A stretch of 32,000 nucleotides of DNA from Candidatus Scalindua sp. (GCA_031316235.1 JALDRA010000001.1:1170001-1202000), one strand, 5' to 3'; numbered from the stretch's first letter, positions 3,205 to 30,106 are shown. Notes: a model not told the origin generated them from the letters alone. A program made the numbers and translations.

Positions 3205-4710
3205 ATGAATTTCCCTGCTCTGTATCCCAAAAAGACAACCCTTTTAAAAATTGTATTCTTCTGCTGTCTCCTCCCGCTGCACTCTTTCATGGGTAAGGCA
3301 TTTGCAAAGGAGGAGCTCTCTCAGATTATCGATAAACAGATACACAGTGCGGCATTGAAACATGCCCAATGGAGCGTCTACGCGGAGTATGCGGATACAG
3401 GAGAAAATATAGCTGACTTTAACGGCGAGAAAAGCCTCGCCCCCGCTTCCGGACTAAAGGTAATCAGCACGGGAGTTGCCCTCATATTGCTTGGAGAAAG
3501 CTTCCGGTTTGAAACCAGCCTCCACTATGATGGGAAAATTTCAGATACAGGGGTTTTGCATGGTAATCTTTATCTCGTTGGCGGAGGTGACCCCACCCTC
3601 GGTTCAGATCAGGTAAAGGGTTCTCCCGACCTGGAAAAAGTGATGAAAACCTGGGCGGAATCAATAAAAAAAATGGGAATCCGCCAGATAACGGGTACTG
3701 TTATTGCGGATATCTCTTTTTTTGATCAGGATACGGTTCCTGATTTCTGGACATGGTCGGATATAGGCAACTATTTTGGTGCCGGTTCCAGTGCGTTGTG
3801 TATCCATGACAATTTATACTATCTCTATTTCAAACCCGGAAGCCTTGCAGGCGACAGTGCAGAAATCATTCGAACTGAACCCAGAGTGGAGGGTATTGAG
3901 TTTGACAACCATATGCGTACGGGCAAGATCGGTTCAGGAGATAACGGATATATCTACTGTGCCCCAAAACAGCGGATTGCAACATTACGCGGTACAATCC
4001 CCGCCGGTGTTGACGAATTTGCCATCAAGGGGTCAATGCCGGACCCTCCTCTTTTTGCAGCACAATATCTTACGGAATTCTTAGTGCAAAGTTGCATACC
4101 GGTCTCCGGACCGGCAACCGTCATAAATCGACACCAGAGGTATCATAATACAAAAAAGATCTGTACCATCTATTCACCGCCATTGACTGAAATTATACAC
4201 ATTACCAACAAAAAGAGTGTCAATCTCTACGCAGAGCAGCTGGTAAAGATGATTGCACGCAAAGGAACTGGCATCGGGAGCACCAAAAGAGGTATCAAAA
4301 TAATTGAAAAGACCCTGAAATCGCTTGGAATAGATACGGGAGGATTATCTCTGTTTGACGGAAGCGGATTGTCCAGGAATACGATGGTAACAGCAAAGAT
4401 ATGTGCCAGATTCTTATCGGCAATGGCAAAACAGAAGTCATTCGGTACATTTTACGACTCAATCTCAATTGCCGGAGACCCGAACGATAGAGGCCACGTA
4501 AAAAGATTCGGCGCAGGAACTCCTGTCGCCTGTAATGCAAGAGTGAAGACTGGATATATAAAAGGTGTGCGGAGCCATTCAGGTTATATCCGCTCTCACT
4601 CCGGAAGACTCATATCCTTTTCACTCATCTGCAATAACTTTTCCTCTCCTATAAATATTATTGACACAATTCACGAATCAGTCCTGGTCAAATTAGCAAT
4701 GCTGCCATGA
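3205..4710 (+). CDS. dacB: D-alanyl-D-alanine carboxypeptidase/endopeptidase, PBP4 (peptidase S13)
   Basis: It has a signal peptide and the three motifs SxxK (PASGLKV), SxN (DGSGLSRN) and KTG (VKTGYIKG). GGGDPTLG and a length of 501 aa are also typical of PBP4. Confidence 0.85.
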   Translation: MNFPALYPKKTTLLKIVFFCCLLPLHSFMGKAFAKEELSQIIDKQIHSAALKHAQWSVYAEYADTGENIADFNGEKSLAPASGLKVISTGVALILLGESFRFETSLHYDGKISDTGVLHGNLYLVGGGDPTLGSDQVKGSPDLEKVMKTWAESIKKMGIRQITGTVIADISFFDQDTVPDFWTWSDIGNYFGAGSSALCIHDNLYYLYFKPGSLAGDSAEIIRTEPRVEGIEFDNHMRTGKIGSGDNGYIYCAPKQRIATLRGTIPAGVDEFAIKGSMPDPPLFAAQYLTEFLVQSCIPVSGPATVINRHQRYHNTKKICTIYSPPLTEIIHITNKKSVNLYAEQLVKMIARKGTGIGSTKRGIKIIEKTLKSLGIDTGGLSLFDGSGLSRNTMVTAKICARFLSAMAKQKSFGTFYDSISIAGDPNDRGHVKRFGAGTPVACNARVKTGYIKGVRSHSGYIRSHSGRLISFSLICNNFSSPINIIDTIHESVLVKLAMLP

Positions 4711-5544: not shown

Positions 5545-5685
5545 TTTACTCATCTCATACTGGATTTCGGATAAATTCCGAGATAAAATTGTGAGAGTAA
5601 TGTTCTCGGGGCCTTTTGTCCGGGGATAACTTCAACGAGGATCTGGTTTCAGGTAAAACCAAAAACCAGATCGGTTTTGGTATAC
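5545..5685 (+). repeat. MITE-like repeat family A, long form (141 bp)
   Basis: Reads tttactcatctcatactggatttcggataaattccgag...gttctcggggccttttgtccgggga...atctggtttcaggtaaaaccaaaaaccagatcggttttggtatac. It starts 4 nt after the DUF1566 stop codon. Confidence 0.85.
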
Positions 5686-5795
5686 CTGAATTCGTTTTGT
5701 CCGGCTCCCACCCCTCTCGATGAGACTCAATCTTCACGCTCCCTCTCTGAGCATTCGGTCCGGAAACTTCCAACCGACCGGTACTCGTCTCTTTT

Positions 5796-5935
5796 TATAC
5801 TCATCTCATACTGGATTTCGGATAAAATCCGAGATAAAATTGTGCGAGTAATGTCCTCGGCGTTTTCTGTTCAGGGATACCTTCACCAGGATCTGGTTTC
5901 AGGCAATACCGAAAACCAGATCGGTTTTAGTATAC
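5796..5935 (+). repeat. MITE-like repeat family A, long form (140 bp)
   Basis: A direct repeat of the 5545 copy, 251 bp downstream. It carries the same terminal repeats and the internal hairpin tcctcgg/ccgggga. Confidence 0.9.
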
Positions 5936-6299
5936 TTCCAAAAAGATTATGTCCTTTGACAAAACCGATAAAATGTATACAATATTATCCACAGTCAAAC
6001 GAATTGATTGAGAACAGGTATGGTAATACTCTCATTTTTTCTTTTCAAATCATTGCATGGAAATCCCTTCGCAGTGAATCCTGAGGATCAGCATTCACAT
6101 TACAAGCTCTTTTGAAGCAATGAGATACACTCTGCTGTTTCTTCCGGCATGCCATTTGTTCCTAATACCCGTGGGCAGAAGAATCATGTACCATATCAAA
6201 CGTTCTCTTTCTCTGTTTGGACAAAGAGGTTTTTCTCTGGTAATTTGTTTTAAATTTCCAGTAGAATGAATTTGTTATCAAAATCGTTTACCCAATGAG

Positions 6300-7055
6300 G
6301 TGATTATGAAGCAAAAAATAAAAGATTATTTCCCTTTTGCATTTCTATTAATTCTGTTAATGAGTGGCTGTTCTCTCATAGATACCATTAAAGGAGAATT
6401 CAGTGCCTCAAAAAAGAATGATAGTGACCGCAAAAATGAAACCATCCAGCAAAATACTACGAGCACCATAAGTAGCGTTGATCTGGAAAATACTCGCAAA
6501 AGTGAAATTTTACAGGTACAGGAAAATACCAGTACCGGCAAAAGTGAAGTTATTAAAAAGAGTAGTGATGAAGTAATATTGGTACCCGCCAAACTTAAGG
6601 ATGAACAAGATGCAGCTATCAGGCAGGAGAGACAATTACCTGTTTATGGCTATGTTGAAAATGTACTCCTTGGCCCAGGCAAGTTACAACTTAAGGCAAA
6701 GCTTGATTCCGGGGCAAAGACCTCTTCGTTGAATGTGTTGGATCTGGTAGAATTTGAACGTGATGGAAGTCAATGGGTCAGATTTAAAATGATTGATCCC
6801 TCAGTTAATGAGGAAGTGGAGTTTGAGAGAAAAATTGAACGCCATGTAAAAATCAAGCAATATGGTGCTGAAAGTGAAAGACGGCCTGTTATCATGATGG
6901 AGGTGCAATTGGGAACCATTCACCTCGAAAGGGCGTTTACGCTAACGAAGCGAAGCGATTTCATCTACAAGGTGTTAATAGGCCGTAATGTCCTCAACGG
7001 ATTTGTACTCATAGATACCTCCCGAACATTTACGACAAACACCGGTTTAGAGTAA
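6300..7055 (+). CDS. lipoprotein with retropepsin-like aspartic protease domain (PF05618 putative ATP-dependent zinc protease / RimB-like)
   Basis: It has a lipobox, LLMSG|C. A retropepsin D-S-G-A motif (KLDSGAKTSSLN) has its Asp codon at 6705-6707. The domain pattern VYGYVENV..LKAKLDSGA..FERDG..WVRF..IGRNVL matches. The likelier start is the ATG at 6306, with GAGG 6 nt upstream. Confidence 0.75.
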   Translation: MIMKQKIKDYFPFAFLLILLMSGCSLIDTIKGEFSASKKNDSDRKNETIQQNTTSTISSVDLENTRKSEILQVQENTSTGKSEVIKKSSDEVILVPAKLKDEQDAAIRQERQLPVYGYVENVLLGPGKLQLKAKLDSGAKTSSLNVLDLVEFERDGSQWVRFKMIDPSVNEEVEFERKIERHVKIKQYGAESERRPVIMMEVQLGTIHLERAFTLTKRSDFIYKVLIGRNVLNGFVLIDTSRTFTTNTGLE

Positions 7056-7061
7056 GAAAGA

Positions 7062-8591
7062 ATGAATTCAAAAATACAGTTTTATATTATCATTTTTTTC
7101 CTGGCCCTCATAGGATTTGGACTCACTTTTTACAAATGCATGTTCCTGGGGTTTCCTTTGTTCCCGGGGCAGCATGAGGAAGTTTGGACTGTTGAGGCGA
7201 AAGTTAAGTTTATGGCTAAAGGCGGTCCGGTAAAGGCATCCTTCCTCATACCTTCAGTTACACCGGGCTACACCATCAAGAGTGAAGATTTTGCATCAAC
7301 CAATTATGGTTTCAACAAAACAAAAGATGAATTTGGCTATCGAGCAAACTGGCATGCACGAGATGTAAAAGGAATTCAGACACTTTACTACCGGGTTCAA
7401 TTCTTCGGTTCTATCCGTTCTACCCCTGCTCCCCTTGAAGAAGAGCCAAAACTTCCCCCTCCGCCGTTTTTTGCTGAACCGTACAGAACAGCAGCTGACA
7501 CGTTGATAGAACTGACACGGAGCCATTCCGCAGACACTGCTACATTCACCGGGGAGTTGCTGAGGAGTTTGAATTCCCCTTCCCGTTCACAGAATATTAA
7601 TCTTCTTTTGAGGGAATACAATACCGATGAATCTAAAAATGAGCTCATCCTCTCACTTCTCACACGTGCAGAAATTCCTGCCCGGATTGTAAGAGGGCTC
7701 TTTCTTGAGGACGGCATCCAGAATCATCCGCTCTCCGATTTGATACAGGTATATGATGGTACTGAGTGGATATTCTATAATCCTCTTAACGGAAAAAGCG
7801 GTTTACCGGCAGATTTCTTTATCTGGCAGGAAGGGGGAAAATCGTTGTTCGATCTTATCGGGGGAGAAGATTCAAACGTCTCGTTCTCGATCAGCAGGAA
7901 TCTTCGTACCTCTCTGGAATTGGCTGCGTATAGAGCAAAGTCCAATGAGGCCAAATTTATTGATTTCTCGATATACAGCCTGCCCATTGATAAGCAGAAT
8001 TCGCTTACACTGTTACTCCTGGTTCCCATAGGCGCACTCGTGGTGGTTATCATGAACAACATTGTTGGAATTCCTACTTCCGGTACCTTTATGCCCATAT
8101 TAATAGCAATGTCTTTCAAACAGACAGAACTCCTGCCGGGCCTCTGTATGTTTTGTATCATTATTGGTGCTGGCCTGCAAATCAGGTCTTACCTGTCTCA
8201 TCTGAACCTTCTGTTCGTCCCGAGAATTTCAGCCGTAGTCATTGTAGTCATTTTGCTCATGTCATGCATGAGTGTCTTCAGTTTCAAGCTCGGAATACGG
8301 CATGGACTCGGTATCACTTTCTTCCCAATGATCATTCTCTCATGGACGATTGAAAGGATATCCATCATCTGGGAAGAACAGGGACATAAGGAGGCACTGA
8401 CTCAGGGAGCCGGCAGTTTACTGGTGGCCTGTATTGTCTTTTTGGTAATGGAGAACAGCATTGTTGAACACCTCACTTTTACTTTCCCTGAATTGATTCT
8501 GGCGAATCTGGCAACAATTTTACTAATTGGCAATTACACTGGATACCGGATCTCCGAATTACGCCGATTCAAATCGATGATCAAGGAATAA
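7062..8591 (+). CDS. inactive transglutaminase-like domain fused to a 7TM module (PF14400 + PF14402 type)
   Basis: It has an N-terminal TM helix, a roughly 300-aa extracytoplasmic domain and a C-terminal polytopic block containing GIPTSGTFMPILIAMSF. It starts 6 nt after the protease stop codon. Confidence 0.7.
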   Translation: MNSKIQFYIIIFFLALIGFGLTFYKCMFLGFPLFPGQHEEVWTVEAKVKFMAKGGPVKASFLIPSVTPGYTIKSEDFASTNYGFNKTKDEFGYRANWHARDVKGIQTLYYRVQFFGSIRSTPAPLEEEPKLPPPPFFAEPYRTAADTLIELTRSHSADTATFTGELLRSLNSPSRSQNINLLLREYNTDESKNELILSLLTRAEIPARIVRGLFLEDGIQNHPLSDLIQVYDGTEWIFYNPLNGKSGLPADFFIWQEGGKSLFDLIGGEDSNVSFSISRNLRTSLELAAYRAKSNEAKFIDFSIYSLPIDKQNSLTLLLLVPIGALVVVIMNNIVGIPTSGTFMPILIAMSFKQTELLPGLCMFCIIIGAGLQIRSYLSHLNLLFVPRISAVVIVVILLMSCMSVFSFKLGIRHGLGITFFPMIILSWTIERISIIWEEQGHKEALTQGAGSLLVACIVFLVMENSIVEHLTFTFPELILANLATILLIGNYTGYRISELRRFKSMIKE

Positions 8592-8594
8592 TAT

Positions 8595-9557
8595 ATGATA
8601 TTTGCGAGTCCTTTCAAGCTCTCAAAGTGCGGTATCCTGGGAATGAATATGCGCAACCTGGACTTCGTACTCAGGTATAATCCAAGGCATCTCTACCCTA
8701 ATGTGGACAATAAGTTAAAAACAAAGCTTCTCGCTGAAGAGGCCGGTATCCCTGTCCCAAAACTTTATGGGGTTATTCAGTTTCAACACCAAATAAAACA
8801 TTTACCAGAACTCCTGGAGAATTATGATCAGTTTGTCGTCAAGCCTTCGAAGGGGAGCGGAGGAAAGGGTATTCTTGTTATTTCAGGCAAGCAAAGAGGT
8901 ACCTTCGTAAAAACAAGCGGCTCTTTGATCTGTCAGAAAGAACTAAATCGACATGTTTCAAATATTGTGAGTGGTCTCTACAGCCTTGGAGGACAGATCG
9001 ACAGCGCCATGATTGAATATTATGTTAATTTTTATCCTCTCTTTAAGGATATCAGTTATCAGGGAGTACCCGACATCAGGGTTCTCCTTTTCCAAGGGTA
9101 TCCTGCCATGGCAATGATACGGCTTCCAACAAGGTTATCTGATGGAAAGGCAAACCTGCATCAAGGGGCTGTTGGCGTTGGGATAAATATTCAAAGCGGC
9201 AGAACCTTAGGCGGAGTATACCATAACAGACCTATTGAAAATCATCCCGATACCGGTATCTCTTTCAAAGGCATATCAATTCCAGACTGGCATGGCCTGC
9301 TTATACTTGCTGCCCGATGTTATGAGATCACAGGTCTTGGTTACATGGGAATAGATATCGTTCTGGATAATGATCATGGCCCAATGATTCTTGAACTTAA
9401 TGCAAGGCCGGGTCTGGCCATACAGGTAGCCAATAATGCGGGTCTGGTTCCCCGCTTACGAAAGATTGAGAAGATGGCATCACAGAAACTTGATATCGAA
9501 CAGCGTGTCTGTTTTGCACAGAGTAATTTTGATGGGGATCCCTTACAACACTTTTAA
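8595..9557 (+). CDS. alpha-L-glutamate ligase-related ATP-grasp protein (RimK-related, TIGR02291 type)
   Basis: GILGMNMRNLDFVLRYNPRHLYPNVDNKLKTKLLAEEAGIPVPKLYG and the ATP-grasp segments FVVKPSKGSGGKGILVI and MILELNARPGL match this family. It starts 3 nt after the upstream stop codon. Confidence 0.8.
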   Translation: MIFASPFKLSKCGILGMNMRNLDFVLRYNPRHLYPNVDNKLKTKLLAEEAGIPVPKLYGVIQFQHQIKHLPELLENYDQFVVKPSKGSGGKGILVISGKQRGTFVKTSGSLICQKELNRHVSNIVSGLYSLGGQIDSAMIEYYVNFYPLFKDISYQGVPDIRVLLFQGYPAMAMIRLPTRLSDGKANLHQGAVGVGINIQSGRTLGGVYHNRPIENHPDTGISFKGISIPDWHGLLILAARCYEITGLGYMGIDIVLDNDHGPMILELNARPGLAIQVANNAGLVPRLRKIEKMASQKLDIEQRVCFAQSNFDGDPLQHF

Positions 9558-9572
9558 ACGAAACCGGAAAGG

Positions 9573-10331
9573 ATGGGATTAGAGATGATAACACGATCTG
9601 CAAATCCAGCTTTAAACAAAGATACATTCACTAATGTAAGAAACCTTACCATTTCTGGCAATGTAATGACTCTTCAAGGAACCGTAAACAAGACAGGTAT
9701 TTTACTTGGCCTGACCTTCTTGTCTGCATTCTGGGTGTGGCGTCAATTTTTCACGTATGAAATGCCCCAGATATCACTATATATACTAGTGGGAGCTATA
9801 GGGGGCCTTATTACTGCAATGATTGCTATCTTCAAACCAACGACTTCACCGTATGCCGCTCCAATTTACGCTTTACTGGAAGGCCTGTTTCTGGGCGGAA
9901 TCTCCTCTCTTATGGAAGCGCGTTTTCCCGGAATAGTAATTCAATCAGTCGGACTGACCTTTGGATCTTTATTTGCCCTTTTATTTGCTTATAAAACCGG
10001 ATTGATCAAGGCCACAGAAAATTTTAAACTTGGAGTAGCTGCCGCAACCGGCGGAATTTTCCTGATGTACATGATAAACATTATCCTTGGTTTTTTTGGT
10101 GCATCCATCCCCTTTATTCACGATAATGGTTTTTTCGGGATCGGTATCAGCGTTTTTATCGTGATCATAGCGGCACTTAATCTCGTTCTTGATTTCGACT
10201 TCATTGAACACGGTGTTGAACAGGGAGCTCCAAAGTTCATGGAATGGCGAGCTGCTTTAGGACTTATGATTACGCTCGTATGGCTCTATATTGAAATACT
10301 ACACCTCATCTCAAAATTGAGGAGCCGCTAA
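9573..10331 (+). CDS. Bax inhibitor-1/YccA-like membrane protein (BaxI_1 type)
   Basis: The N-terminus is RSANPALNK..MTLQGTVNKTGILL. ALLEGLFLGGIS and LVLDFDFIE..AALGLMITLVWLYIEIL are also family-typical. The true start is probably the ATG at 9585. Confidence 0.7.
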   Translation: MGLEMITRSANPALNKDTFTNVRNLTISGNVMTLQGTVNKTGILLGLTFLSAFWVWRQFFTYEMPQISLYILVGAIGGLITAMIAIFKPTTSPYAAPIYALLEGLFLGGISSLMEARFPGIVIQSVGLTFGSLFALLFAYKTGLIKATENFKLGVAAATGGIFLMYMINIILGFFGASIPFIHDNGFFGIGISVFIVIIAALNLVLDFDFIEHGVEQGAPKFMEWRAALGLMITLVWLYIEILHLISKLRSR

Positions 10332-10537: not shown

Positions 10538-10900
10538 CTATGATTCTTCTATAATAAGTATCAGACCACAATCCGGACATTCCCGCGCATCAGCACCAAC
10601 ATGGTGACCGCAAGCAGGGCATCTGCCCTGAGCAACCCATTCCTGAGACTCTCTTATCTCCGGGTGCAAAATCATGTAATATTCCTCTATATTCCCAAGC
10701 GCAGCCTGAATATTTTCCTTAGTAACCAGGAGATGATAGGTTGAACCGCATTTCCCGGCACTACACCCCGGGGTAAGAGCAATCCGTGATGGAATGCCCT
10801 TTTCCTGAAGCATATGAGACAACTCCTTTATCCACTCTCGCAGATCTTCCTTTATTACTACCCATTCATCATGGGCATCTCCTGATATTTGTGTTTCCAT
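10538..10900 (-). CDS. hypothetical protein with C-terminal zinc ribbon
   Basis: A 120-aa ORF with CPACG-x9-CPDCG at the C-terminus. I recognise no family. Confidence 0.5.
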   Translation of the reverse strand: METQISGDAHDEWVVIKEDLREWIKELSHMLQEKGIPSRIALTPGCSAGKCGSTYHLLVTKENIQAALGNIEEYYMILHPEIRESQEWVAQGRCPACGHHVGADARECPDCGLILIIEES

Positions 10901-11170: not shown

Positions 11171-11371
11171 TTATACTTTAACTACATTTGAAGCCTTAAA
11201 ACCCTTCTGGTCTTTGATGATTTCAAACTCTACCTTATCTCCTTCTGCCAGAGATTTAAAACCTTCACCCTGAATTGCGGTATGGTGCACAAATACATCG
11301 TCCCCGTTCTCCTGTGAAATAAATCCGAAACCCTTTGAGTCATTAAACCACTTGACTGTTCCACTTGTCAT
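11171..11371 (-). CDS. csp: cold-shock protein (CspA family), tandem copy 1
   Basis: [41 protein letters not shown] contains the RNP1/RNP2 motifs. The RBS GAGGGGGTGAT lies before the ATG at 11371, so the track ORF start at 11383 is an upstream extension. Confidence 0.95.
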
Positions 11372-11507
11372 ATTAAAAATCACCCCCTCTCAATTAAAAA
11401 AACCCGGAAATAAAAATATGTTCATACACCTACTCTATATTTTTAGATACAACCCTCTTTCGATAAAATCATCCCATATGACAATACGAGTATGCTTTGT
11501 AATATTT

Positions 11508-11708
11508 TTATACTTTAACTACATTTGAAGCCTTAAAACCCTTCTGGTCTTTGATGATTTCAAACTCTACCTTATCTCCTTCTGCCAGAGATTTAAAACC
11601 TTCACCCTGAATTGAAGTATGGTGCACAAATACATCGTCCCCGTTCTCCTGTGAAATAAATCCGAAACCCTTTGAGTCATTAAACCACTTGACTGTTCCA
11701 CTTGTCAT
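11508..11708 (-). CDS. csp: cold-shock protein (CspA family), tandem copy 2
   Basis: Its 66 aa are identical to copy 1 except for one residue (HHTSIQ versus HHTAIQ). It has the same RBS. Confidence 0.95.
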
Positions 11709-15903: not shown

Positions 15904-16043
15904 TATACTCATCTCATAATGGTTTTCGGATAAAATCCGAGATAAAATTGAGCGAGTAAAGTCCTCGGCGTTTTCTGTCCGGGGATACCTTCACCAAGAT
16001 TTGGTTTCCAGTAAAACCGAAAACCAAATCAGTTTTAGTATAC
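15904..16043 (+). repeat. MITE-like repeat family A, long form (140 bp)
   Basis: A full-length match to the 5796 copy. It begins 47 nt upstream of the csp start, on the opposite strand. Confidence 0.9.
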
Positions 16044-16268
16044 ATAACGTAAATCTCTTTGCAAAGGCAATATATATGTATACGTACCCCAAGATATCCG
16101 CAAAACTGAAAGATGGTATCAAACATTGTTTATGAAAACAAGATAAATTTTTCCAGTCAAAGTTATTATTTTTTATTGAAAAAGATAACCAATTCCCGCA
16201 CAAACCGTGTTGGGTTTATCATTATCATAATTGGTGAAGAGTAAAACGATAACAGCGGTACAGGTGTG

Positions 16269-26710: not shown

Positions 26711-29700
26711 TCAATCATTTTTTCTTGTTCCGGCCAGTTCAAGCTGGTGAATAGAATGTTCTTTATCCAGAGCTTCTTCTCCATGACAATGAATGCGTCT
26801 TAGATCATTTTTTATCGTAAAGGCCGTTTCGGCAGATTGAACATCATCTCTTTCGTAAAGTTTTTTACCTATATCTTCAAACATATCCCCCAAATCGTCA
26901 AGACCTCTCAGGGTGATACTCCGAGGCAAATTCAATGCTTTTAATAATTGATCACAATCGGCAACAACATCTTCGTACTTATCCAGGACTATATTACTCT
27001 TACAGATAAGGAGCCTGACAGCAAAGAGAGTCGGATCAATATCAACCGCCTTCCTCCAGAAAGAGACAGCTTCTTCAATGCATCCTCTTTTTACTTTGAC
27101 TTGACCAATCTTAAACATCGTATCCGCTGACGGTTCATTCATATTCAGGAGTTTTACATACGTCTCTTCCGCCTTATCAAGATCATTCCTTTCTCTGTAA
27201 AATTCACCCAGAAGAGTCAGGCAATCCCTGATGTCAGCAGATTCAGCGACAGCTTTGTCAATCTCGGACTCACCCCTGGCTATCTGATTGTCAGATAAAT
27301 AAAAGAATCCTCTCAGGAGGTGTATCTTCCATTTGTGCCCGATCGTATGAAATGTACAGGAGTTATATCCTTTCGGTTCTTTTGTTGCTTCATCCAACAA
27401 TGCTAAATACTTTTCTGAGACTTCCAGAAAATTGTCGTACCTTTTCAAATCAGCGTATACGAATGCAAGAATACAGAAACCATCTACGTATCTGTTATCG
27501 AGTCCAATGAGCTTCAATGCATAGAACTCTGCCTCCTGGAGCCTCCCTGATCCATAACCTGCCGCACTGATCACATAATAGGATACTAAGAAGTCTCTTA
27601 TATTCAGTTTTTTTATTTCTGTTAATTCCAGAGCCGTTTTACTCTCCCTGATAGCTTTTCCATATTCACCTTTTTCTAAATACAGGATTCCAAGATATCG
27701 GTAAGGAACCGGATTGCATGGATCCGTTCTTATCTGCTTTTGTAACAAACAATATGTCCGTACGAACTTTTTCTCCATCTCTTTTTCCGATAAATTATAT
27801 CCATAGTGGGTTATACTTATTGATGATTCTAGACATTTCCCCCTGAATGATAAAACGTTGTGAACAATTCCATCATACCGTGTACCCTGGAAATTTCTGA
27901 AGAGGCGGATGGAGTTTGTGTATGATTCATTATGAGAGTTCCTTGACCTGCTTTTGACAACAAAGGATATGGCTGAATACCCGTTACCCTTTATTAATTC
28001 CTTGATCCTTGAAATATCAGATTTGTTTAACTCCTCATCTGCGTCCATTATGAGTATCCATTTGGAAGTTGCGTACTGCAGGGAATAGTTCCTTGCCTTG
28101 CTGAAACTGTTTTCCCATGCATGGTAATAGACATCGGCACCATATCTCTGTGCAATCTCCACTGTCCTGTCTCTTGAACCGGTATCAACAATTATCATCT
28201 CATCAACCAGTGAGTTAACACTGTCAAGACACCTCGCAAGATTGCCTTCCTCATCCTTTACGATCATGCAGAGAGAAACAGTAGATCTACGGCCGGAGAT
28301 TTCTCCTGCCTGAAGTCTGGTCCGAGCCTCCGGAGTTGTTTCAATTGGTGAAATCGTACCTGAATCCTGCATTAACCGTCTCTTTTGATCGGTGATGAAA
28401 CCTCCTGAAGATTTTCTGGTAACAAGCTTTTTTGCGTTAAAATCCGGCATCTTCTCTGCTAATGCTTCTCCCACTCGATTAAAAACTCCAGCCCAATCAC
28501 CTGGATGAGTCTGACGAAATAGACGCATACTCGGATACCATGGACTGTCCTCACGATTCATTAACCAGCGCCAGTCTGGCACGAACGGCAGGAGTATCCA
28601 TACCGGTTTGCCAAGAGCGCCGGCAAGATGTGCTACTGCGGTATCGACAGAAATAACGAGATCAAGATTAGCAATTACCGCTGCCGTGTCTGAAAAGTCA
28701 TCCAGCTTATCTTCCAGATTGATGATGTCCATACCCTCAGGCGGAGAGAGCACTTCAACTGAAGCCGGGCCCTTTTGCAGAGAGTAGAATTTCAATCCCG
28801 GAATCTCAGACAGGTCAGCAAAAGCACGTAAAGTGCACGATTTCTTAAGACAGATAGTGCGGTTCTCCGGATTCCCTGACCAAACAATACCAATTCTGAA
28901 GCAGTCATTACCGGCAAGGAGTTTCTGCCATTCATCAGCAAGTCTGAGATCTGCCACAATATAGGGGACAGGAGATGGTATCGTTTCAAGTTTTGTATCA
29001 AATATTCCAGGCAGGCTCATAAGAGGAATATGGAAATCAAATTCCTGAGCCGGATATCCGGAAGTGGACATTTCAACGATTTCATCGATTCCGTTACCGT
29101 TTTCTAAAAGCTTAAGGAGCTGAGGCCAGCACTCAAAGATTACACGGCCACCTTTTGACTGGACCAGGGGCAGATAACGGGCAAATTGTATCGTGTCACC
29201 AAAGCCCTGCTCAGCGTGTACGAGGATACTCTCACCATTGAGAGGAGAACCTTTCCATTCAGGCTGTTGCAGTGTTTTTAACGCATACTCCTTTGTGCAC
29301 AATCTCTTCTCATATTCTGGCCAGGCTTCAGTAAAACGCCCTTTCAACAGCAACAACATGGACCTGTTAAATTGAGCTTCTCCATAATCCGTTTTTGATG
29401 CGATTGCCTTGTCAAAGGCAAGAAGTGCTTCGTTTAATCTTCCCTGTTCCTGGAGAACTATTCCGCAGTTATTATGAGCTTCTGCATTATCGGGGCTGAG
29501 GCTTATCGCACGGGAAAGAGCACACAGAGATTCATCGTACCGTCCTTGATCCTTGAGAGTTACTCCCAGATTATTATGTGCCTCTATATAGTCTGGGTTG
29601 AAAGTAATCGCTTTCCTGTAATGTCTTACTGCTTCATCCAGCCTGCACTCCCGTTTCAATGCATTGGCGAGATTATAGTGTGCATCAGCATAATCAGGTT

Positions 29701-30106
29701 TCAGTACAATCGCGTATTTATAATTTGCAATGGCCTCATCAGACCTGCCCATCTCTATTAATACAGCCCCAAGATTGTTGTAGATCTCTGCATGGTCAGA
29801 CTTCAGCTTCATCGCATTTCCATAACTTGCAGCGGCCTCTTCAAATTTCCCCTGTTTCTGTAAAATAACTCCCAGAATATTATATGTTTCAGCATCTTCA
29901 GGTTTGAGCATAATCGCCTCCTTAACCAGTTCTGATGCCCTCTCAAGATCCCCCTTCTGCAGACTCAGGGTACTTAAGAGAATTAATGCGGCTGTCTGTC
30001 CCGGTTCTATATCCAGGAGATTTCGGTATGATGTTTCTGCTGCAGCAAGGTTACCATCCTTATGATATTTGAGGGCTTTGTGAAATAAATCCTCGGAATT
30101 TTCCAT
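26711..30106 (-). CDS. multidomain protein: TPR - GT9-like (heptosyltransferase-fold) - GT2 - TPR
   Basis: aa 1-265 are TPR repeats. aa ~290-555 are GT9-like (HAEQGFGDTIQFARYLP; ISVDTAVAHLAGALGKPVWILLP). aa 609-800 are GT2 (SLCMIVKDEEGNLARCLDSV..IIVDTGSRDRTVEIA..MDADEE). aa 800-1131 are TPR-like. Confidence 0.85.
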   Translation of the reverse strand: MENSEDLFHKALKYHKDGNLAAAETSYRNLLDIEPGQTAALILLSTLSLQKGDLERASELVKEAIMLKPEDAETYNILGVILQKQGKFEEAAASYGNAMKLKSDHAEIYNNLGAVLIEMGRSDEAIANYKYAIVLKPDYADAHYNLANALKRECRLDEAVRHYRKAITFNPDYIEAHNNLGVTLKDQGRYDESLCALSRAISLSPDNAEAHNNCGIVLQEQGRLNEALLAFDKAIASKTDYGEAQFNRSMLLLLKGRFTEAWPEYEKRLCTKEYALKTLQQPEWKGSPLNGESILVHAEQGFGDTIQFARYLPLVQSKGGRVIFECWPQLLKLLENGNGIDEIVEMSTSGYPAQEFDFHIPLMSLPGIFDTKLETIPSPVPYIVADLRLADEWQKLLAGNDCFRIGIVWSGNPENRTICLKKSCTLRAFADLSEIPGLKFYSLQKGPASVEVLSPPEGMDIINLEDKLDDFSDTAAVIANLDLVISVDTAVAHLAGALGKPVWILLPFVPDWRWLMNREDSPWYPSMRLFRQTHPGDWAGVFNRVGEALAEKMPDFNAKKLVTRKSSGGFITDQKRRLMQDSGTISPIETTPEARTRLQAGEISGRRSTVSLCMIVKDEEGNLARCLDSVNSLVDEMIIVDTGSRDRTVEIAQRYGADVYYHAWENSFSKARNYSLQYATSKWILIMDADEELNKSDISRIKELIKGNGYSAISFVVKSRSRNSHNESYTNSIRLFRNFQGTRYDGIVHNVLSFRGKCLESSISITHYGYNLSEKEMEKKFVRTYCLLQKQIRTDPCNPVPYRYLGILYLEKGEYGKAIRESKTALELTEIKKLNIRDFLVSYYVISAAGYGSGRLQEAEFYALKLIGLDNRYVDGFCILAFVYADLKRYDNFLEVSEKYLALLDEATKEPKGYNSCTFHTIGHKWKIHLLRGFFYLSDNQIARGESEIDKAVAESADIRDCLTLLGEFYRERNDLDKAEETYVKLLNMNEPSADTMFKIGQVKVKRGCIEEAVSFWRKAVDIDPTLFAVRLLICKSNIVLDKYEDVVADCDQLLKALNLPRSITLRGLDDLGDMFEDIGKKLYERDDVQSAETAFTIKNDLRRIHCHGEEALDKEHSIHQLELAGTRKND

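Follow-up and report, generated by a model that had tools for sequence, protein, structure and literature searches.

The rloABC locus and the identity of its genes

The stretch of DNA analysed here, referred to throughout as the window, comprises 32,000 nucleotides (nt) of a genome of Candidatus Scalindua sp. (GCA_031316235.1 JALDRA010000001.1:1170001-1202000), a marine anammox genus of the Planctomycetota. Between positions 6300 and 10331 it carries four plus-strand open reading frames (ORFs; 6300–7055, 7062–8591, 8595–9557, and 9573–10331 in window coordinates). The first three almost certainly form an rloABC operon, the system described in Pseudomonas aeruginosa as PA14_41690/41710/41730 (Lormand et al. 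2025, mBio; PMC12239564), and the fourth encodes a membrane protein of the BaxI_1/YccA family. The RloB protein of the window is 100% identical to an NCBI protein of a Candidatus Scalindua sp. metagenome-assembled genome (MAG). The intergenic gaps measure 6, 3, and 15 nt, the third becoming 27 nt if the BaxI_1 gene starts at the ATG at 9585; this confirms the tight packing reported in the original prediction, a reading of the same DNA made without database searches.

The likelier start of rloA, which encodes a putative lipoprotein of the retropepsin-like aspartic peptidase type, is the ATG at 6306: It is preceded by GAGG at 6297–6300 and gives a product of 249 amino acids (aa; gene at 6306–7055) that is also called on metagenome contigs of the same strain. 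A GTG at 6300 is the alternative start and underlies a 251-aa numbering. The rloB gene (7062–8591) encodes a predicted inner-membrane protein of 509 aa, and rloC (8595–9557) a putative cytoplasmic ATP-grasp ligase of 320 aa, resembling alpha-L-glutamate ligases. The product of the fourth gene (9585–10331 from its likelier start; alternative start at 9573) is a multi-pass membrane protein of 248 aa, a length shared by all of its relatives.

Profile searches recovered all five of the families that had been named for these proteins in the original prediction. RloA matches PF05618 (5e-34) over 135 of 138 profile positions, RloB matches both PF14400 (3e-48) and PF14402 (2e-103), and RloC matches TIGR02291 (5e-134) over 312 of 317 positions, its 446 bits exceeding the cut-off of 314. 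Among Pfam models RloC fits PF14397 best (ATPgrasp_ST, 1e-88), and PF08443 (RimK) matches it only over a stretch of 38 residues. The fourth protein is matched by PF12811 (1.5e-75; 254 bits against a gathering threshold of 26) over profile positions 1–232 of 233, and weakly, at 29 bits and under the cut-off, by PF01027, which likens it to the YccA/BI-1 (TMBIM) proteins. NCBIfam holds models named RloA, RloA2, RloA3, RimB, and RloB, derived from Lormand et al. 2025; the window proteins score under the cut-off for RloA (78 bits against 280), RloA2 (79 against 250), RloA3 (125 against 210), RimB (62 bits for the window RloA), and RloB (399 against 900), the last match spanning the full length of the protein. 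The cut-offs are narrow, and the RloA and RloB models appear to have been trained on close Pseudomonas relatives. It should be noted that scores below these cut-offs rule out close orthology as NCBI defines it; membership of the families is not thereby denied.

For comparison we used 84 other rloABC loci, namely 80 listed from contigs representing one genome per species and four intermediate relatives; Scalindua genomes are not among the 80, and Scalindua contexts were taken from contigs encoding the proteins. In 84 of these 84 loci the genes run rloA-rloB-rloC on one strand and stand only a few bases apart. The region as a whole is therefore best described, with good confidence, as the Scalindua rloABC operon followed by a BaxI_1/YccA-family gene that would share its transcript most likely through local gene order and not through function. 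A triad of this kind was reportedly predicted by comparative genomics in the amidoligase survey of Iyer et al. 2009, and the original prediction regarded it as known from prediction only. That view has been overtaken by the structures, cleavage assays, and epistasis now available for rloABC (PMC12239564), while on substrate and product the original prediction still holds good. Because Lormand et al. (2025) characterised exactly this triad, it is an already known and partly characterised system, and what is new here is its occurrence in an unusual phylum. The window shares with the Pseudomonas operon the three families, their order, the tight packing, and the TIGR02291-type RloC, whereas it differs in its host, an anammox planctomycete, and in the extra BaxI_1 gene downstream.

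The Rlo proteins and their proposed mechanism

In P. aeruginosa, the RloA proteases are retropepsins that are secreted, form dimers, and have a basic channel for the substrate; crystal structures are available for them, and purified RloA cuts runs of at least eight Glu in vitro. It also cuts RimB substrates in vitro, and genetically rimB does not interact with the rloA genes (PMC12239564). Loss of all three RloA paralogues abolishes growth in salt-free or low-salt medium, and the triple mutant is also defective in biofilm formation, beta-lactam tolerance, and cell shape; deletion of rloB or rloC suppresses these defects, lethality included, and no natural RloA substrate was found (PMC12239564). 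In Shewanella vesiculosa, knock-out of an RloB homologue leads to over-production of membrane vesicles (PMC12096838).

The window RloA begins with a basic MKQKIK segment followed by a hydrophobic core and a lipobox, LLMSG/C, found by pattern match (L-M-S-G-C at 6357–6371), with Cys22 as the predicted lipidation site. The protein thus appears to carry an N-terminal secretion signal, which would set it apart from the cytoplasmic RimB. Both the lipobox and the D-S-G-A active-site motif noted in the first reading of the DNA are present, Cys22 and Asp134 of the 249-aa form being Cys24 and Asp136 in the 251-aa form. The retropepsin domain covers residues 112–249 (6639–7052), with the Asp134 codon at 6705–6707, and also contains the basic residues treated below. 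Sequence matches to the window RloA in the PDB are 2pma, 9g58, and 9g59, and in phmmer the protease domain scores 56–60 bits against the RloA structures 9g58 and 9g59, at low identity.

The structure 9g58 is that of a P. aeruginosa RloA with a chain numbering offset of 20, at which the basic residues named in the published work fall on Arg or Lys. In the alignment the catalytic Asp is kept (D48 in Pseudomonas, D134 in the window, positions confirmed), and K46, R92, K95, K97, R114, and R137 of the Pseudomonas protein correspond to K132, R179, K182, K184, R193, and R216 of the window protein, respectively. These six residues bind poly-glutamate (poly-Glu) or are needed for cleavage and complementation, and in both R114A and R137A cleavage and in vivo complementation are lost (PMC12239564). 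As judged from the alignment, neither the catalytic Asp nor any of the basic residues by which the Pseudomonas enzyme binds poly-Glu has been lost from the window RloA; the two proteins also have in common the secretion signal and the catalytic D-[TS]-G motif. From these conserved residues and the biochemistry of its orthologue, RloA is probably an extracytoplasmic protease that cleaves poly-Glu.

Between the lipobox Cys and the protease domain lies a low-complexity tether of 89 aa (residues 23–111; 6372–6638), 65% of which are S/T/K/E/N/Q/D and which has an isoelectric point of 5.2. The original prediction had noted a linker of about 90 residues as a feature not expected of the short proteobacterial homologues: The linker is real, and it is not peculiar to this lineage. 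In at least 72 of the 84 rloB-linked RloA genes at the other loci listed, a hydrophobic stretch leads up to a lipobox-like Cys, which in 70 of these 72 precedes a spacer of 50–120 aa (median 82 aa), and Aeromonas RloA genes missed by a stricter filter also show LSLGG/C. The tethered lipoprotein is the usual form of operon-linked RloA, to which the short P. aeruginosa proteins (model lengths 159–178 aa) are an exception; the predicted lipid anchor and 89-aa tether of the Scalindua RloA contrast with the plain signal peptide of the 178-aa Pseudomonas protein. The spacers, 56–120 aa long in most of these genes, are unrelated in sequence between lineages: Those of Vibrio, Aeromonas, Photobacterium, and Nitrosomonas are rich in Q/E/L and resemble coiled coils, those of Halieaceae and Porticoccaceae are rich in Pro/Cys, and those of Scalindua and locus L003 in S/T/N/K (L numbers designate individual loci). 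Conserved length combined with free sequence suggests a role as a tether or spacer.

In outer-membrane lipoproteins of the LpoA/LpoB type, a lipid anchor and a long unconstrained spacer let a folded domain reach its partner across the periplasm. The RloA tether, conserved in length and not in sequence, might provide a comparable reach, the likeness being one of analogy only, with no homology. If so, the near-universal anchor and the length-conserved, sequence-free tether would mean that the protease acts at a set distance from a membrane, which would in turn constrain where the poly-Glu product sits. The words lipoprotein, lipobox, and linker do not occur in the main text of PMC12239564; the tethered form, unmentioned in the Pseudomonas study, may say where the protease works. 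A further form of RloA, about 385–400 aa long, was seen in Endozoicomonas and related Oceanospirillales (L021, L027, L030–L032, L035, L036, L038, and L039, shown in full). All ten reading frames listed, L050 included, have two D-[TS]-G motifs, corresponding to two tandem retropepsin domains per chain, which could form a pepsin-like pseudo-dimer.

RloB is laid out as an N-terminal transmembrane helix (residues 2–29), a periplasmic transglutaminase-like domain (about 30–300), and a C-terminal multi-helix seven-transmembrane ("7TM") domain (about 305–509). An AlphaFold2 model built from a 65-sequence alignment (mean predicted local distance difference test score 77) accordingly starts with a helix, continues with a periplasmic domain of mixed alpha/beta structure, and ends in a helical bundle. 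In a Foldseek search of the PDB only the periplasmic part found relatives, the transglutaminase-like cysteine proteases 3isr (4e-9) and TgpA (6g4h); there was no solved homologue of the 7TM domain, so that the search gives no structural clue to transport. Residues 27–361 of the window RloB include no Cys, and the periplasmic part of the 65-sequence family alignment shows neither an invariant Cys nor an invariant His: A transglutaminase-like fold lacking these residues justifies the label "inactive transglutaminase". TgpA (P. aeruginosa PA2873) and similar proteins share the periplasmic fold and the membrane anchoring with RloB, whereas TgpA keeps a Cys-His-Asp triad and RloB has no Cys in that domain; the Pseudomonas RloB, like that of the window, combines a dead transglutaminase domain with a 7TM domain. 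In the same family alignment the invariant polar or charged residues cluster in the membrane domain (invariant positions are TSGTFMP 339–345, R375, R388, WTIER 428–432, WEE 437–439, E477, R496, E499, and R502), and it is there that the conserved chemistry of RloB sits. The window RloB is 43–52% identical to the gammaproteobacterial homologues compared, none of them from Pseudomonas.

No transmembrane segment was found in RloC. Its nearest solved relatives are the RimK-type ligases 7qys and 7qyr, which match over only about 40 residues, and on the RimK family model TIGR00768 its score of 50 bits falls short of the cut-off of 143. The good part of that match is confined to residues 238–275, the short stretch to which PF08443 also aligns. 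The rimABK system, which polyglutamylates ribosomal protein S6, likewise pairs an ATP-grasp Glu ligase (RimK) with a retropepsin-like protease that trims poly-Glu (RimB), but RimK and RimB are both cytoplasmic and work without a membrane protein.

The scheme put forward in the original prediction, with a cytoplasmic ligase, a 7TM protein, and an extracytoplasmic protease, coincides with the working model favoured by the genetics and biochemistry published in 2025. RloC, as a cytoplasmic ATP-grasp enzyme, would build a Glu-rich or poly-alpha-glutamate chain, either free or on a carrier, and RloB, in the inner membrane with its dead transglutaminase-like domain, would be needed for the product to reach the envelope or act in it. 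Dimeric RloA, held by a lipid anchor and a flexible tether of about 90 residues, would then cut poly-Glu outside the cytoplasm, a step proposed because of the conserved residues and the experiments on the Pseudomonas orthologue. If RloA were missing, the RloB/RloC product would damage the envelope, above all in dilute medium, and the system would therefore tune envelope integrity under osmotic stress. That RloC makes poly-Glu and that RloB exports or presents it, as family membership, topology, and the Pseudomonas epistasis suggest, we regard as evenly balanced.

Several points weigh against this model. Poly-Glu as the natural substrate derives from in vitro cleavage and modelling, and the RloC product has been identified in no organism; the transport role of RloB is pure inference, for a membrane domain to which Foldseek finds no solved homologue in the PDB. 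Equivalence to the Pseudomonas proteins, at about 30–50% sequence identity and with NCBIfam scores below the cut-offs, is assumed, and the anammox envelope is unusually compartmentalised, so that localisation may differ.

The most serious alternative is that no poly-Glu is made or trimmed in vivo: RloC would ligate another amino acid or modify a molecule of the envelope, for instance a lipoprotein or the stem peptide of peptidoglycan, and RloA would be a regulatory protease acting on a protein substrate, possibly the periplasmic domain of RloB. This would be in keeping with the best Pfam model of RloC, PF14397, being described as a "sugar-transfer associated ATP-grasp" and with TIGR02291 being only a "hypothetical equivalog", as well as with the Pseudomonas phenotypes, which are tied to cell shape and sensitivity to cell-wall antibiotics and for which no natural poly-Glu substrate was found (PMC12239564). 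A gene for a PBP4-type D,D-peptidase also lies upstream on the same strand in the window, L007, and L009, but neither L094 nor any of the listed non-Scalindua loci has it next to the operon. The retention of the poly-Glu-coordinating residues from Pseudomonas to Scalindua argues against this alternative, as does the loss of in vivo complementation in the R114A and R137A mutants (PMC12239564), and we consider it unlikely, if still worth weighing.

The poly-Glu model bears on a system that affects antibiotic tolerance, biofilm, and osmotic survival in pathogens, for which the RloC/RloB product that RloA cuts is the question. We know of no pure culture of Scalindua; since the organism cannot be manipulated genetically, the window adds no testability to that question.

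Distribution of rloABC and of the adjacent BaxI_1 gene

Published searches place 96% of RloB matches in the Proteobacteria (PMC12239564). To place the Scalindua operon, we calculated a neighbour-joining tree of concatenated RloB and RloC (817 columns, 35 taxa), based on simple distances and rooted at the midpoint. In 200 of 200 bootstraps Scalindua clusters with the four intermediate relatives, and two Phycisphaerae MAGs (L042 and L060) join this group in 190 of 200; the resulting clade is separate from those of Nitrosomonas, Endozoicomonas, Vibrio/Aeromonas, and Halieaceae. The GlnS protein encoded at L003 has its best named match in Candidatus Anammoxibacter (Brocadiales) at 77%, against 70–73% for other phyla, which is suggestive only. 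The operon seems to be established in a planctomycete clade and not to be a very recent import, the taxonomy of four clade members being unproven. An operon with all poly-Glu-binding residues intact occurs outside the Proteobacteria in a well-supported planctomycete clade comprising Scalindua, its four relatives, and the two Phycisphaerae MAGs. The rloABC genes of the Phycisphaerae MAGs encode RloA proteins with short spacers of 24 aa. A Gemmatimonadales MAG (L017) carries an rloABC that nests among Nitrosomonas and Burkholderiales sequences, which may reflect either transfer or a binning error.

The original prediction raised the BaxI-like gene as a possible fourth component of the system. 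A gene of this family follows rloC only in syntenic Scalindua loci: in L001, which is from the same strain, in L007 and L008 (AMX11), and in L009 and L094, two further Scalindua-like contigs. Compared with the window, RloB is 86–87% identical in L007–L009, the BaxI_1 proteins of these loci are 87–92% identical, and the gap between rloC and BaxI_1 is 27–47 nt. Outside this subclade, the four intermediate relatives (RloB identity 59–72%) encode rloABC without a BaxI_1 gene within 8 kb, and none of the 80 broader loci listed has a homologue (tblastn, E≤1e-5, up to 8 kb on each side of rloB, the full 8-kb flanks being present in 56 of the 80). BaxI_1 is not a conserved partner of the triad, and a general fourth component is set aside, on the ground that the original prediction had itself named as refuting; linkage in one Scalindua subclade, with possible lineage-specific co-transcription, is what remains of the proposal. 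With no terminator-like site between rloC and the BaxI_1 gene in the window, the latter is likely co-transcribed with rloABC in that subclade, as far as gene order allows this to be read.

The Scalindua subclade could have recruited BaxI_1 as a working fourth component, which might partner RloB in the membrane or, by modulating FtsH or leaking ions, buffer the membrane stress that the system handles; if this were true, rloABC and the co-transcribed BaxI_1 would form a four-component osmotic-stress module of the envelope that is peculiar to marine anammox bacteria. A genuine functional link at this locus would fit the gap of 27 nt, in which the window has no terminator-like site, and the preservation of the rloC–BaxI_1 junction on one strand in four or five Scalindua lineages (RloB identity down to about 86%), and BaxI_1 and the Rlo proteins are all envelope or membrane proteins. 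These points weigh against a purely positional reading. However, the whole downstream block (a zinc-ribbon gene, cold-shock genes, RecD2, and a glycosyltransferase) is syntenic in all BaxI_1-bearing Scalindua loci, so that the adjacency carries little information, the entire neighbourhood being shared by ancestry. On a contig resembling Scalindua brodae and Scalindua rubra, whose TrpE clusters at ≥90% with proteins of these two species, an 80%-identical BaxI_1 is flanked by trpE on one side and a gene for an aminotransferase on the other, and rlo genes are absent within 7 kb. Two further, unrelated contexts contain homologues that are 73% and 66% identical, and the family is very large and common in unrelated contexts. 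Together with the absence of a homologue around rloB (up to 8 kb on each side) from all 84 listed loci outside the subclade, this makes it improbable that BaxI_1 is functionally part of the system, and recruitment as a working component is doubtful to the same degree.

To our knowledge, the YccA/BI-1 family has no link to rlo genes, and a sequence search of the PDB with the BaxI_1 protein gave no match. At L093 (4914–7801), in an unrelated lineage, a BaxI_1 gene comes immediately after genes for a DUF898 protein and an M48 peptidase, the spacing being about 12 nt at most, a different tight context that may say more about the function of BaxI_1 than the Scalindua locus does.

Operon boundaries and surrounding features

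That the four genes are merely adjacent and independently expressed is scarcely credible: Promoter and terminator scans, being no richer than for shuffled sequence, neither define nor exclude internal signals, but gaps of 6 and 3 nt are too small for signals, the genes overlap or nearly touch in an A-B-C order that does not vary across the Gammaproteobacteria (Nitrosomonas and Burkholderiales included), the Gemmatimonadales MAG, and the Planctomycetota, and the rlo genes act in one pathway genetically in Pseudomonas (PMC12239564).

The upstream leader and promoter region (5938–6305, plus strand) contains a sigma-70-like site at 5956–5983 (TTGACA-16-TACAAT, 11 of 12 positions), which is a candidate only, as the counts of promoter and terminator sites equal the shuffled expectation. 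A noncoding block at about 6095–6175 of the rloA leader is conserved among the Scalindua loci (window, L007, L009, and L094). It contains …AATGAGATACA.TCTGCTGTTTC.TTCGGCATGCAATTTG…, is kept despite frame-breaking indels, and might serve as a promoter or operator or act as a leader RNA element. In L007, L009, and L094, the upstream Lcl_C gene is followed by its terminator, a G+C hairpin and T-run, and then by a partly conserved leader of about 300 nt; because this hairpin follows Lcl_C in the relatives, the unit is taken to start after Lcl_C. The Lcl_C gene was accordingly ruled out as an operon member, and it is not found near rloABC outside Scalindua. The PBP4 gene (3205–4710 in the window) was ruled out as well: It is missing upstream in L094, is split off by inserted genes in L009, and is not near rloABC in the non-Scalindua loci listed.

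In the window, the position of the relatives' Lcl_C terminator hairpin is occupied by two copies of a repeat of about 140 nt. This repeat is dispersed on the plus strand in three copies (5547–5687, 5798–5937, and 15906–16045; 87% mean identity), is bounded by TATAC...GTATAC, and has two internal hairpins, with an RNA fold z-score of -2.9. One hairpin, GATCTGGTT/AACCAGATC, shows a compensatory double change in the third copy (GATTTGGTT/AACCAAATC). The exact 27-nt core of the repeat is found in no other Scalindua locus, and the element is either of the miniature inverted-repeat transposable element or repetitive extragenic palindrome (MITE/REP-like) kind or a small RNA family. An Rfam scan of the whole window, leader and repeat included, gave no match.

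Downstream, no clear intrinsic terminator follows the BaxI_1 gene (fold z-score -1.2), and the next gene (10538–10900, minus strand) converges on the operon. Its product, a zinc-ribbon protein of 120 aa, is encoded at this position in all Scalindua loci and scores 57 bits on the NCBIfam model "zinc ribbon-containing (seleno)protein DG", under the cut-off of 130. Two tandem, near-identical cold-shock genes of 66–70 aa follow on the minus strand (11171–11383 and 11508–11708); the relatives have two to four cold-shock copies scattered in the same block. Among the other large ORFs of the window, those scanned are genes of an ordinary chromosomal kind: a sodium:solute symporter, PBP4, the Lcl_C-domain protein, the two cold-shock genes, RecD2, glycosyltransferases, and a flagellar cluster. 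The last of these (19785–26041, minus strand) encodes a FlgN-like protein, FliS, an unusually long FliD (1033 aa), and flagellin, and is flanked by genes for large tetratricopeptide repeat (TPR)-glycosyltransferase proteins (17653–19578 and 26711–30106), which suggests flagellin glycosylation.

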